Positions 39,136-58,293 of a DNA stretch of 64,000 bases are shown here, piece by piece. Made by a program: the position numbers and the translations under genes. The DNA is taken from the NCBI GenBank assembly GCA_963749915.1, contig CAVVOP010000005.1, positions 128,001 through 192,000 of the forward strand, in the 5' to 3' direction. Positions within the stretch are counted from its first letter, which is position 1, and every line of letters begins with the position of its first letter. This DNA comes from an uncultured cyanobacterium (GTDB taxonomy: Bacteria > Cyanobacteriota > Cyanobacteriia > Cyanobacteriales > Cyanobacteriaceae). A model generated the notes under the pieces. That model was not told the DNA's origin, did not search any database, and was given only the letters and a program-made list of their open reading frames with translations.

Positions 39136-39903
39136 ATGCACAACTTTGAACTTAATCATGGCAATTTTAGTCTAGAAAAAAAAAATTTAGAACTAAATTC
39201 AGAACTAAATTCAAGCACAAATTTTGCGGAGGAAAGTAGCGAAAATGATTTGTTGAACAACAAGCCACAACTAATTCCTCGTCCAGAATATAATCCAGAA
39301 TATCAAGTCAATTCTACTACTATTATTAATTCGACTAAGACAGAAATAAATCATAACCATAACAACCATAATCATCACATTAGCCAACACAGGCTTAGAG
39401 ACAGAATTTCTATATTTGTTGATGGAAATAATATGTTTTACGCTCAACAAAAAAATGGTTGGTTTTTCGATCCGCGCAAAGTAATTGACTTTTTTTCTGA
39501 AGAATCGGGGTTTATGTTAATTAATGCTTTTTGGTACACTGGATTAAAAGACTCTCAAGATCAAAGGGGTTTTCGAGATGCCTTAATCAGTCTTGGTTAT
39601 ACCGTGCGCACAAAAATCCTTAAAGAATACTATGATGATAGCTCAGGGCGTTTTTCTCAGAAAGCGAACCTCGACATTGAAATTGTAGTAGATATGTTTA
39701 ACACTGTTGATCAATATGATCGAGTCGTGTTGTTCAGCGGTGACGGCGATTTTGAAAGAGCGATCGAATTATTAAGATCAAAAAACACTCATATTACTGT
39801 AGTTTCCACTGATGGTATGATTGCTCGTGAATTACGCAACGCCACTGACAGGTATATGGATCTCAATGAGATTAGAAACTGTATCGAAAAAAGGGACTAT
39901 TGA
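39136..39903 (+). CDS. NYN domain protein (LabA/DUF88 family)
   Basis: IFVDGNNMFY, KANLDIEIVVDM, LFSGDGDF. Confidence 0.9.
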   Translation: MHNFELNHGNFSLEKKNLELNSELNSSTNFAEESSENDLLNNKPQLIPRPEYNPEYQVNSTTIINSTKTEINHNHNNHNHHISQHRLRDRISIFVDGNNMFYAQQKNGWFFDPRKVIDFFSEESGFMLINAFWYTGLKDSQDQRGFRDALISLGYTVRTKILKEYYDDSSGRFSQKANLDIEIVVDMFNTVDQYDRVVLFSGDGDFERAIELLRSKNTHITVVSTDGMIARELRNATDRYMDLNEIRNCIEKRDY

Positions 39904-40010
39904 AATAATTAAGTTGATAAAACTGGTGGTCTTTGACTGCCTTAAAGGAAAACCACCAAGAACTAAAACGCCATCGCCTGTTCATGATTGCCCTGACTGG
40001 AGTAGGTAAT
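39901..40010 (-). pseudogene. relic 3' end of a second pyruvate kinase gene
   Basis: Minus frame HYLLQSGQS*TGDGVLVLGGFPLRQSKTTSFINL aligns with the island Pyk C-terminus RGDSVLILGGLPLRQAGSTSFLDI (14 of 20 identical in the core). Confidence 0.6.
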
Positions 40011-40141
40011 GCCTCCTGTTAGCGATCATAGGTACAGGCTCAAAATTATAGCCAAAGCCGGAGCGAGATTGGGGATTAGCTTGAATCTGGACAAGTTGGA
40101 TTGCCCGATTTTGACAATAGCCAATAAGACTCGCTATATCT

Positions 40142-41635
40142 TTATTCACCGCTCAAAAGTTTTTGGAGAGTTACTCGAGATCCTTCCCTGTAAAGTGACT
40201 CCATAAATTTTCCTACTTCGTTTTTGAAAACATCTGAGCTTCTCAATCTTGGAGCGAAGAGATCTTCTAAAGCCAGAAGCTTTTCCGGCGATTCCCCACC
40301 TTCTAGCGCAGCCTTTTGTAGAGGTTCCACCATTGGATCGTCGATTTCAAACCCCTGTCCCTTCTCGTCTTTTCCAGTTAAATAGCGAAACCAGGCAGCA
40401 ATACATAAAGCGGCACAGGAGAATGGGCCACCAGTGTCTAAGTGCTTAAGGATGACAGGAAGCACAAATTTAGGGATTTTACTGGAGCCATCGAAACAAA
40501 TGCGAGTAAGTTTATCTTTGATTTTTGGATTGGTAAAACGTTCTAGGAGAGTCTGCTTGTATTCCTCAAGATTAATGCCCGGTACCGGAGCGAGGATCGG
40601 CGTTACCTCCTCATCCATATAGCGAAGGATATAGCGTCGAAACTCTTGATCACTGGCGACTTCATGAATATACTCAAACCCTGCCAGATACCCTAAATAG
40701 CCCATCAAAGAATGACTGGCATTTAAAAGCTGCATTTTCATTAATTCGTAGGGCATGACATCGGGAACAAACTGTACTCCAACATCTCCTAAAATAGGAC
40801 GACCGGCAGCAAAATTATCCTCAATTACCCATTGAATAAAGGGTTCAGCCACGACTGGCCAAGCATCATCTAGGCTAAAATGCTCTCGAAGTTCCTGACG
40901 ATCTGCATCCGTTGTCGCTGGCGTTATGCGATCGACCATACTATTGGGAAAGGCAACATTCTTTTGAATCCATCGATAAAGATTGGCATCGCGTGCTTGA
41001 GCATAACCTTCGATCGCTTTCCGGCTTACCGTTCCATTTTCGGGTAAATTATCACAGGATAGGATAGTTACCTTTGCTCCCCTTCTATCCATTCGCCGTT
41101 TTAACCCCTCAACGATACAACCAATGGCAGTTGAAGGCGTTTCTGGATTGGCTAAATCGTTTTGAATGCTCTCATCAGACAGCAAAAATTCATCGGTGGC
41201 TGAACTGTAGAAATAACCCCCTTCAGTGATAGTAAGGGAGATAATTTTCGTCTGTGACCCTGCCATCTTATCCAGAAGGGCATCCAAATTGTCTGGTGCA
41301 AAGAGATACTCGACCATTGAGCCAACTATATAAGCCTCCATTTGCTTAGCACTCCTTTCAATAACCGTGTATAAAAGATCCTGCGGCACTAAGGCTTCCT
41401 TCATTTGGCGATCCCCCGGCATTAAACCAACGCCACAAATTCCCCATTCAGAAGGACCATATTTTTGAAAAAGTCGGTCCAAATAGACTGCCTGATGGGC
41501 GCGATGAAATCCCCCGACACCAATATGGACAATAGCACTGCCACACCCAGAGCGATCGTATTGCGGTACACTCATTTGAGCAGCTAGGTCATTGAGTGTT
41601 TCATTATTGAGTTTTCTCAGGCTCATTTTTTCCAT
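40142..41635 (-). CDS. mannitol dehydrogenase family oxidoreductase (long-chain polyol DH)
   Basis: IVHIGVGGFHRAHQA, LTITEGGY, LSCDN, NSMVDRITP, K..LLNASH. Confidence 0.92.
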   Translation of the reverse strand: MEKMSLRKLNNETLNDLAAQMSVPQYDRSGCGSAIVHIGVGGFHRAHQAVYLDRLFQKYGPSEWGICGVGLMPGDRQMKEALVPQDLLYTVIERSAKQMEAYIVGSMVEYLFAPDNLDALLDKMAGSQTKIISLTITEGGYFYSSATDEFLLSDESIQNDLANPETPSTAIGCIVEGLKRRMDRRGAKVTILSCDNLPENGTVSRKAIEGYAQARDANLYRWIQKNVAFPNSMVDRITPATTDADRQELREHFSLDDAWPVVAEPFIQWVIEDNFAAGRPILGDVGVQFVPDVMPYELMKMQLLNASHSLMGYLGYLAGFEYIHEVASDQEFRRYILRYMDEEVTPILAPVPGINLEEYKQTLLERFTNPKIKDKLTRICFDGSSKIPKFVLPVILKHLDTGGPFSCAALCIAAWFRYLTGKDEKGQGFEIDDPMVEPLQKAALEGGESPEKLLALEDLFAPRLRSSDVFKNEVGKFMESLYREGSRVTLQKLLSGE

Positions 41636-41677
41636 CCTTAAAATTCAAAATCTAAAATCGATTGGCCCATAGAGGTA

Positions 41678-56300: not shown

Positions 56301-56328
56301 CAGTTTTAGTTTTTCATCAGTTTTAGTT

Positions 56329-57348
56329 TTAGAAAAGTCCTTCTTTCTTGGCCATGAAGAGCATCAGGTCAATTACCCGGTGGGAGTAACCCCATTCGTT
56401 GTCGTACCAAGAAACAACTTTAAAGAAATTGGAATTTAATTCGATTCCGGCTCCAGCATCAAAAATACTCGAATGGGGGTCAGAGATAAAGTCACTGGAG
56501 ACTACCGGTTCATCCGTATAGCCTAAAATACCCTTTAATTCTCCTTGCGCTTCAGCTTTCATCGCTGCGCAGATTTCCTGATAGTTAGTAGCTTTCTCAG
56601 TTTTAAAGGTAAGATCGACCACGGAAACATCCGGAGTTCCGACTCGAAACGCCATCCCGGTTAGTTTTCCCTTCAAGTGGGGTAACACCAGTGCCACTGC
56701 TTTAGCCGCACCCGTGGAAGAGGGAATGATGTTTTGGGAAGCCCCTCGTCCTCCCCGTAAGTCTTTATGACTTGGTCCATCTACCGTTGGTTGGGTTGCT
56801 GTCATGGAGTGAACTGTGGTCATTAAGCCTTCAGTAATCCCGAAAGAGCGATCGAGAACTTTAGCAACCGGTGCCAAGCAGTTTGTAGTACAACTGGCAT
56901 TAGAGACGATCAAATCCTTAGCTGGGTCAAAATCTTGGTGATTAACCCCCACCACAAAAGTGGGAATTTTATCGGGATCTTTACTTGGGGCAGAAATCAT
57001 CACCCGTTTAGCTCCAGCTTTCAGATGGTTTTCTGAACCTTCATAGGTGGTAAACCGTCCCGTTGATTCCACTACATAGTCGGCACCGAGTTTGCCCCAA
57101 GGTAACTGGGAGGGGTCTTTTTCCGCCAGACAGGGAACGAGCTTGCCATTGATTTCAATACCATTATCTTTGGCAATCACTGGTCCCGGATATTTCCCAT
57201 GGGTAGAGTCGTATTTGAATAAATAAGCCAGATTTTCCGAGGGAACGAGGTCATTAATCCCCACAATCTCCACTTCTGGATGATCCATGGCAATGCGAGC
57301 GACTAAACGTCCTATGCGACCAAATCCATTAATACCGATTTTCAGCAT
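56329..57348 (-). CDS. gap: type I glyceraldehyde-3-phosphate dehydrogenase (catabolic type)
   Basis: [39 protein letters not shown]. Confidence 0.97.
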
Positions 57349-57484
57349 CTGATTAATTTTCCTTTTTTACGGTAGTTTACAGTTTAATAATATCTAAAGT
57401 TTTAGATAGCTAGGAAATTAATTCAATGCTTAATTTTTGAATTTTGAATTTCTCTCACCAACCAATTGACTTTTTTCGCCAACC

Positions 57485-58293
57485 CTACCTAAAAGCATCT
57501 TTACCCACAAAACGAGCTGTTTTACCTAAGTGTCTTTCAATACGAAGGAGTTGGTTGAATTTAGCAATGCGTTCGCTTCGACAACCAGAACCTGTCTTAA
57601 TTTGACCCGCGCTGGTGGCGACGACTAAATCGGCAATAGTCGTATCTTCGGTTTCACCGGAACGATGGGAAACGAAGCATTTATAATTATTTTTCTGAGC
57701 TAGTTCTACCGTTTCCAAGGTTTCCGTGAGAGTCCCAATCTGGTTCACCTTAATCAGAACCGAATTGGCGATTCCTGCTTCAATTCCTCGGGCGACAATT
57801 TTCGGATTAGTACAGAATAAATCATCCCCCACCAATTCCACTTTGTTCCCAACGGCATCGGTGAGCATTTTCCAGCCATCCCAGTCATTTTCCCCCATGC
57901 CATCTTCTAGGGAGACGATGGGATATTTACTGACCCAATCTGACCACAATTTCACCATTTCTGCGGGGGTTTTGGTTTCCTGGGTGGATTTAAAGAACAG
58001 GTACTTGCCATCTCGCCATAATTCTGAGGTAGCGGGATCTAAACAGATGGAAATATCTTCGCCAGGTTTGTAACCGGCAGCAGATATGGCTTCTACAATC
58101 AGCTCGATGGCTTCTTCATTAGATTTCAAATCGGGAGCAAATCCGCCTTCATCTCCTACACCGGTACTTAATCCTTTCTTTTTCAGCAAGGCTTTGAGAG
58201 TATGAAAAGTTTCCTCTCCCATGCGAATCGCCTCAGCAAAACTAAGGGCATTATGGGGAGCAATCATGAATTCTTGGAAATCAATGGTATTAA
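57485..58293 (-). pseudogene. eno: enolase, 5' third missing
   Basis: [40 protein letters not shown]-terminal domain replaced by IS sequence. Confidence 0.92.

Follow-up and report, generated by a model that had tools for sequence, protein, structure and literature searches.

The DNA analysed in this study, referred to below as the window, is the 64,000-nucleotide stretch at positions 128,001-192,000 of contig CAVVOP010000005.1 from an uncultured cyanobacterium of the family Cyanobacteriaceae, whose genome (labelled G000) comprises 4.69 Mb in an assembly of 34 contigs; coordinates are those of the window unless another contig or locus is named. At 39901-58291, the window carries a cassette of glycolytic and fermentation genes that is real, foreign and in decay, and that belongs to a type of glycogen-fermentation cassette which is widespread among cyanobacteria but has been little described. 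The cassette was acquired horizontally, is in mid-decay, and was likely kept because its gap1 took over from the lost native gap1; this reading is given a probability of roughly 60%. An earlier note on the same DNA had seen in it a heterolactic-like operon, with doubt marked for pgk only. This view does not hold: xfp carries two frameshifts, seven of the 15 genes are broken, and open reading frame (ORF) and family scans found none of ackA, pta, adhE, zwf, and gnd in 39901-58291. The block is thus a decaying import and not a functional heterolactic operon.

Gene content and lesions

All 15 genes or gene remnants of the cassette are encoded on the minus strand between 58291 and 40142; read in that direction, they are eno-gap-pyk-xfp-ldh-orf-gpmA-tal-pgi-glgP-(pgk)-pgm-His phosphatase-amylosucrase-mannitol dehydrogenase; the same scans confirm the gene order and single orientation that had been claimed before. 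Eight of the 15 are intact and of full length, namely, gap1, pyk, ldh, orf96, glgP, and the genes for histidine phosphatase, amylosucrase, and mannitol dehydrogenase (mdh), whereas eno, xfp, gpmA, tal, pgi, pgk, and pgm are broken, as called by comparison with intact relatives. From right to left, the features are as follows.

58292..59652, plus strand: IS1634-family element, internally deleted (~590 bp gone), with NF033559 and DUF4277 matches; adjoins eno and marks the right end of the surviving cassette
57485..58291, minus strand: enolase (eno) remnant, codons 157-423 of 424, from the family scan and comparison with an intact relative; the 5' part and anything upstream are gone
56329..57348, minus strand: gap1-type glyceraldehyde-3-phosphate dehydrogenase, intact; TIGR01534 above cut-off, motifs present; the only intact gap1 in the assembly
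54879..56300, minus strand: pyruvate kinase (pyk), 473 aa, intact; TIGR01064 above cut-off
52276..54707, minus strand: phosphoketolase (xfp) pseudogene with two single-base insertions, near 53540 and 52934
51152..52177, minus strand: D-2-hydroxyacid dehydrogenase, likely D-lactate dehydrogenase (ldh), intact; PF02826/PF00389, motifs present
50798..51088, minus strand: orf96, conserved cyanobacterial protein, intact; 18 loci at 40-64% identity
50151..50693, minus strand: gpmA (dPGM) 5' remnant, codons 1-181 of 231, fused to tal by deletion
49538..50164, minus strand: transaldolase (tal, EF-hand type) 3' remnant, codons 195-400; ~6 bp of microhomology at the gpmA/tal junction
47900..49478, minus strand: pgi with a single-base insertion near 48086; last ~60 residues lost
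45366..47867, minus strand: glycogen phosphorylase (glgP), intact; TIGR02093 above cut-off, motifs present
45267..45296, minus strand: pgk-like 10-codon start, resembling the start of the native pgk-like ORF at C5:368554-369759; too short for the family scan
44404..45270, minus strand: phosphoglucomutase (pgm) 3' remnant, codons 266-553; TIGR01132 positions 270-543
43693..44340, minus strand: histidine phosphatase (His_Phos_1), intact, from the Pfam scan
41678..43663, minus strand: amylosucrase-type enzyme, intact; best PDB match amylosucrase 3ucq (E 5e-203), catalytic motifs present
40142..41635, minus strand: long-chain mannitol 2-dehydrogenase-type enzyme, intact; best PDB match 7rk4 (E 2e-150)
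39901..40141, no strand: left border, a step in GC content; the native NYN gene ends here and, at about its stop codon, foreign DNA begins

Six lesion events were recognised: the cut of eno by IS1634, two insertions in xfp, one in pgi, and two deletions (gpmA/tal and pgk/pgm), the second joining the pgk-like start to pgm with a 4 bp overlap, so that both deletion joins carry short overlaps. All three frameshifts are single-base insertions; in xfp, the three resulting frames match residues 1-389, 386-593, and 592-809 of an intact relative. As a control, 69 native orthologues (70.3 kb) contained no frameshift, versus three in ~16.6 kb of cassette genes, and the probability that all three land in the cassette is ~0.007. 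Two control genes had a stop inside the first 12 aligned residues, which is read as start-site overhang. The eno 5' half was not found elsewhere when the whole assembly was searched, and the IS1634 element is 95-97% identical to a full copy, its left end being present in 31 copies in the genome.

With the xfp reading frame falling into three and six further genes broken (eno, gpmA, tal, pgi, pgk, and pgm), a working phosphoketolase module is not supported, and the cassette is unable to run alone today. The hallmarks of a heterolactic operon are present in part: a D-lactate dehydrogenase gene is found, an intact phosphoketolase is not, and lower glycolysis is interrupted at pgk, gpmA, and eno. 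For all seven broken genes, intact counterparts lie at other places in the genome (eno, pgi, xfp, tal, gpmA, a pgm of a second type, and a pgk-like ORF), and the intact xfp, on C21, is 90% identical to that of a congener. Genes for ackA, pta-like, and adhE are likewise located elsewhere in the genome, together with two pfk genes.

The seven intact enzymes retain the motifs that we presumed for them and checked. The top NCBIfam matches of ldh are D-lactate dehydrogenase models, every one below cut-off, and D-lactate is its putative substrate. The frameshifted pgi retains QPGVEAGK, which we take to be the motif with the catalytic lysine, and residual activity of the truncated protein is therefore possible. 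The orf96 product had no Pfam or NCBIfam match, and its best Atlas score (0.81) was uninformative. In many cyanobacteria, orf96 homologues lie between a histidine phosphatase pair and a ~125-aa gene, presumably cNMP (cyclic nucleotide)-binding-like, sometimes with ackA (loci L016-L033). As a marker for such cassettes, orf96 was rejected, most of its 18 loci being without a cluster.

At the left border, one environmental contig (X3) diverges from the window at 39901, and the congeners differ past the NYN stop codon. No integrase ORF was found, the sole tRNA gene of the window is at 8907-8981, and with the right end lost at IS1634, flanking repeats are not comparable. That gene, for tRNA-Trp, and the longest heptamer repeat array of the window (9931-10047) both lie outside the cassette. 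To the right of the IS1634 element (59653-61787), a TolB-like gene and part of a helicase gene are duplicated at C5:23896-25867 with 99.7-99.8% identity, and more pieces are found on C16, which points to an IS-linked rearrangement or an assembly issue at the right end of the cassette.

Foreign origin of the cassette

The earlier proposal that the block came from another, higher-GC cyanobacterium is supported by composition, phylogeny, the empty site in congeners, and native second copies. GC content over 39901-58291 is 0.482 versus 0.375 genome-wide, as had been noticed, and in a sliding 10-kb scan one cassette window ranks third highest in the genome (mean 0.375, standard deviation 0.029). 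GC at third codon positions (GC3) is 0.38-0.65 in cassette genes versus 0.25-0.37 in native gap2, gap3, pgi, eno, glgP, pyk, and xfp, placing the cassette genes at the 88th-99.8th percentile among 2535 genes. The supposed richness in two repeat types did not stand up. There are nine sites of the highly iterated palindrome HIP1 (0.49/kb vs. 0.34/kb), a count reached or exceeded in 17.6% of 461 genome windows of the same size, and the observed/expected ratio is 37 versus 80 genome-wide, i.e., HIP1 is half as over-represented. Of short tandemly repeated repetitive (STRR) sequences, the cassette has two heptamer arrays, a density of 0.11/kb that compares with 0.13/kb over the remainder of the window and 0.09/kb genome-wide.

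The trees place gap2, gap3, pgi, eno, glgP, and pyk of the host together with their counterparts from congeners, and the cassette copies fall outside. Approximately unbiased (AU) tests on quick trees (LG+G4, taxa restricted to the loci fetched for the analysis) reject a clade of cassette and native genus copies for gap1 (p 5.5e-6), pgi (0.0025), and eno (0.0023); for pyk and glgP, the separation is seen in the trees, AU tests having been run for gap, pgi, and eno. Gene phylogenies, proposed earlier as a check, thus set these five genes apart from the host's own, and native second copies are present in the genome for most cassette genes. A syntenic cluster in close relatives, which would have spoken for vertical descent, is absent: none of the six congeners has the cassette beside the NYN gene, the NYN-rhodanese pair being kept there with other neighbours. 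The ldh type of the cassette was not found in the six congeners, nor gpmA in five of five.

The best matches, at 75-87% identity, come from a number of different cyanobacterial families, which indicates that the donor is unsampled and that the cassette is probably a mosaic. An attempt to name a single donor was unsuccessful, the best matches being split among G102 (eno 86%, gpmA 87%, pgm 83%, pyk 78%), G029 (xfp 87%, ldh 80%, glgP 75%), G396 (gap 84%), and G591 (pgi 81%).

Likely replacement of the native gap1

All six congeners have gap1, at 72-74% identity, while the only match in the host at E<=1e-130 is the cassette's own. At the gap1 site of congener G001, the flanks align with the host at 82-83%, and ~1220 bp lie between them there versus ~165 bp in the host. 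This site corresponds to C8:247800-247970, where the host is ~1 kb shorter and has a ~100-bp repeated piece instead. A second candidate site, used for gap1 by three other congeners, is also without gap1 in the host. It is therefore likely that the cassette gap1 replaced the lost native gene. According to a review (PMC11257934), it is Gap1 that operates in the dark, when Gap2 is blocked by CP12. The gap of a second imported cassette (cassette B, described below) has lost residues 148-282 with the catalytic Cys motif. Since no native gap1 was found in the assembly, the gap of cassette B is broken, and Gap1 is active in the dark, replacement of the native gene is the preferred explanation for the persistence of the cassette; selection on gap1 would then be what retained it.

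Amylosucrase and mannitol dehydrogenase tail

The last two genes of the cassette may form an extra NADH sink, in which sucrose would be converted to glucan and fructose, and fructose to mannitol. Mannitol dehydrogenase of this type is rare: among 300 other genomes from the phylum, 11 were found to have it, with the best copies at 48-50% identity, and no amylosucrase was seen beside the homologues in the 4-kb loci viewed. Database proteins match it at 90 and 86%. On three of 27 annotated metagenome contigs (L114-L116), amylosucrase (85-86%) is directly followed by mdh (91-93%), so the pair is older than this cassette. No description of such a pairing in cyanobacteria was found in the full-text literature searched, outside which most subscription journals fall.

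The tail may instead be catabolic, with mannitol dehydrogenase oxidising imported mannitol to fructose, and amylosucrase and the phosphatase serving compatible-solute turnover rather than electron disposal. Members of this dehydrogenase family are usually catabolic in bacteria, some cyanobacterial homologues adjoin ORFs that we take to resemble sugar ABC transporter and sugar kinase genes, and the native amylosucrase adjoins a fructokinase. Here, however, no transporter or kinase lies beside the pair, and the adjacency on metagenome contigs fits a hand-off of fructose, which leaves a catabolic tail possible but somewhat doubtful. In several filamentous cyanobacteria (L061, L063, L066-L071), a second mannitol-dehydrogenase-like gene is followed by a gene for what is presumably a HAD-like phosphatase, judged from one motif; the two are a candidate native mannitol synthesis pair.

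Two further cassettes and host context

Two more cassettes were located in the host by tblastn. Cassette B (C21:44150-59931; L001, L002) holds eno, an EF-hand protein gene, pgi, ldh, glgP, broken gap (two in-frame deletions), pyk, tkt, ppk1, and glgX, with a GC content of 0.51; genes of other orders match its glgP, pyk, pgi, and eno at 85-90% identity, and transposase-like ORFs lie on both sides. Cassette C (C22:145135-151834; L003) holds an eno fragment, gpmA, pgi, tal, and glgP, with a GC content of 0.42 and host-like GC3. Its tal is the only intact one of its type in the assembly; it is 73-75% identical to those of congeners and falls outside the genus clade (AU p 0.126), so a displacement of the native tal is no more than suggested. 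The glgP genes of the main cassette and cassette C are sisters in a FastTree tree. A single duplicated origin of the three cassettes was rejected for pgi, which does not form one clade (AU p 0.0005), and the two other cassettes apparently came from other donors.

The host also has a full nif cluster (C21, ~454000-487000; nifH above cut-off) with adhE beside it. As nifH was found in none of the six congeners and in two of 19 family genomes, the host is the only nif-bearing member of the seven in the genus, and a link of imported dark catabolism to night-time nitrogen fixation is plausible from this one genome.

Other high-GC blocks were seen in the host. One (L242:5368-18676; C21:17-31 kb) carries V-type ATP synthase subunit A and subunit-like ORFs, interrupted by ppk2, which to our knowledge is unusual for a cyanobacterium. 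Two others, L241 (C20:158-178 kb) and L240:8926-14812 (C8), hold a divergent pyruvate kinase and what are in part presumed to be P-type-ATPase-like and glycoside-hydrolase-like ORFs, with a fifth glgP beside another such ORF.

Weighing the alternatives

Parts of the stretch occur in 20 sequencing runs from 11 studies, one, which may be related to the source of the genome, containing 0.67 of its words; the one RNA run contains 0.06. Sediment populations carry the cassette at ~99% identity. Runs with small word shares were set aside, as was the low X1 depth over the left flank, ~37% of that run having been read. Contigs of four runs from two studies were compared over 39500-52150; among the aligned pieces, one of 1905 bp shows 11 differences and one of 1664 bp shows 16, and 25 differences (40199-45331), from 40 listed of 230, were classified.

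Several observations weigh against retention through gap1. No gap1 was found in seven of 19 family genomes, three of them 63-84% complete, so the gene may be dispensable, and with 34 contigs a native gap1 could sit in an assembly gap. The redundant genes pyk, ldh, and glgP are intact too, which means that intactness alone is no proof of selection. A promoter (and terminator) scan of the cassette was at chance level (26 vs. 25 +/- 4.7), and with the 5' end lost, the promoter is presumably gone as well. The X1 contigs show 18 differences in the intact tail genes, of which eight are synonymous and 10 are not (under neutrality, 22-30% would be synonymous; P 0.03-0.15), and three of five replacements in mdh are derived in the host genome, so selection on the tail genes appears weak at best. 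Lastly, the eight genes shared among the three cassettes each survive in at least one, for which the chance expectation is 54%; selected complementary loss, considered as a candidate, is unsupported at this value (0.54).

Such observations would fit a cassette that has been silent and decaying neutrally as a whole since IS1634 took its promoter, with the eight intact genes unhit so far and the host living without Gap1. By a rough estimate, six lesions would spare the few non-redundant genes by chance with a probability of ~0.3, and the lost 5' end, the slight synonymous excess of the tail with derived changes in mdh, and the family genomes lacking a gap1 match all agree with it. On the other hand, gap1 is kept by all six congeners, its loss in the host coincides with an intact imported copy, and AT-rich spacers precede gap and ldh that could hold internal promoters. 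Wholly neutral decay is therefore considered rather unlikely, and replacement of the native gap1 is preferred.

It is very improbable that, as first read, the cassette is an intact, working phosphoketolase/D-lactate operon whose breaks are sequencing or assembly errors or very recent culture mutations: although the frameshifts are all single-base insertions, one low-depth X3 contig (depth 2.1) lacks the extra pgi base, and one X1 contig ends at the pgk/pgm junction, so that intact versions probably exist in nature, no native control gene is frameshifted, base-calling errors do not explain the two large deletions or the truncation by an IS, breaks are found in cassette B (gap) and cassette C (eno) as well, and ackA, pta, and adhE are absent from the cassette. 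Neither deletion junction was bridged by any contig among the records listed.

Ancestral function and related cassettes

Judged from the enzyme families, the ancestral cassette would have converted glycogen to glucose 1-phosphate, glucose 6-phosphate, and fructose 6-phosphate via GlgP, Pgm, and Pgi, with phosphoketolase and transaldolase taking the carbon on to triose phosphate. Gap1, Pgk, GpmA, Eno, and Pyk would then lead to pyruvate and D-lactate, with ATP made and NADH recycled in the dark. From sucrose, amylosucrase would transfer the glucose to glucan and release fructose, whose reduction by mannitol dehydrogenase would be a second NADH sink. Today, the eight intact genes, if expressed, likely act with native genes and the two other imported cassettes. 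Of the portable glucan-to-D-lactate module proposed earlier, the ancestral form is thus reasonable, shuffled relatives being widespread and one lying on a plasmid, but a functional phosphoketolase module is not supported, xfp and six other genes being broken.

Among 74 loci chosen as best matches rather than as a random sample, 20 (19 genomes, at least 12 families, many orders) hold at least four of these enzymes within 20 kb. Such shuffled cassettes (L016 of Gomphosphaeria aponina, L042, L072, L074, L080, L092-L096, and plasmid pC052_A of Nostoc sp. C052) draw on a common pool of xfp, glgP, pgi, pyk, ldh, gap1, gpmA, eno, pgm, tal, ackA, and ppk; none has the present order, and many carry ackA, unlike here. 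No amylosucrase or mannitol dehydrogenase at >=50% identity was found in the 20 cluster loci. The Nostoc plasmid, typed conjugative, carries glgX-xfp-fba-glgP and ppk1. Of the four plasmid regions examined, it alone holds a cluster, one has a phosphorylase-xfp pair, and two have lone genes; a plasmid search with pyk gave no match at E<=1e-120.

In Leuconostoc and Oenococcus, heterolactic phosphoketolase fermentation is accompanied by mannitol formation. The cassette resembles what we take to be their gene set in phosphoketolase, D-lactate dehydrogenase, a sucrose-splitting glucan polymerase, and fructose reduction to mannitol. However, its xfp is dead, zwf, gnd, ackA, pta, and adhE are absent from it, the host has its pfk genes, and lactic bacteria use a different mannitol dehydrogenase family.

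The linear chromosome of the unicellular diazotroph Cyanothece (Crocosphaera) ATCC 51142 reportedly (Welsh 2008) carries a large accessory glucose/pyruvate cluster with duplicate glycolytic genes and lactate dehydrogenase. Compared with that cluster as we presume it to be, the present cassette is inserted between native genes within a contig of 490 kb, encodes a D-type enzyme, and is in decay. An excerpt of a published source (PMC3187577) confirms for strain 51142 the lactate-fermentation genes and the linear chromosome, and nothing further. In Anabaena sp. PCC 7120, the xfp operon comprises all2567 (xfp), all2566 (gap1), all2564 (pyk1), and all2563 (talB), and its expression after nitrogen step-down is lower in a sigE mutant (PMC4390870), which makes it SigE-dependent. 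This nitrogen-fixing cyanobacterium thus shares the clustering of xfp, gap1, pyk, and tal, and locus L050 has the Anabaena order. In the cassette, the four genes are co-oriented on one strand, two of them (xfp and tal) as broken pseudogenes, in an order unlike that of Anabaena, and are part of a set of 15 that includes glgP, pgi, pgm, eno, gpmA, ldh, and the sugar tail and has a foreign composition.

Significance

The kind of cassette is already known from the Anabaena xfp operon and, reportedly, the Cyanothece 51142 cluster; a description of such cassettes as a group was not found in the full-text literature searched, with the same gap in subscription journals. What is new is that the native gap1 is missing and has likely been replaced by that of the cassette, that the host is the sole nif-bearer in its genus, and that an amylosucrase-mannitol dehydrogenase tail may provide an extra NADH sink. 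Also distinctive is that one genome holds three such imports, apparently independent of one another. The survey also indicates that glycogen-fermentation cassettes are common and have been reshuffled over at least 12 cyanobacterial families. It can be speculated, though it is unlikely to hold in full, that cyanobacteria exchange a family of shuffled night-metabolism cassettes which spans the class and displaces core glycolytic genes, and that this host rebuilt its dark catabolism from three independent imports, the main one giving gap1, another transaldolase and gpmA, and the remaining one spares of enolase and pgi, with a tail that would turn sucrose into glucan and mannitol as a natural fermentation product. 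If the tail does make mannitol, cyanobacteria would have in it a fermentation product and electron sink of their own. The analysis corrects a reading that was attractive but wrong, in that the block is a half-dead import rather than a functional heterolactic operon, and it offers a snapshot of an imported pathway that is being pruned while probably assuming one core function, that of Gap1.

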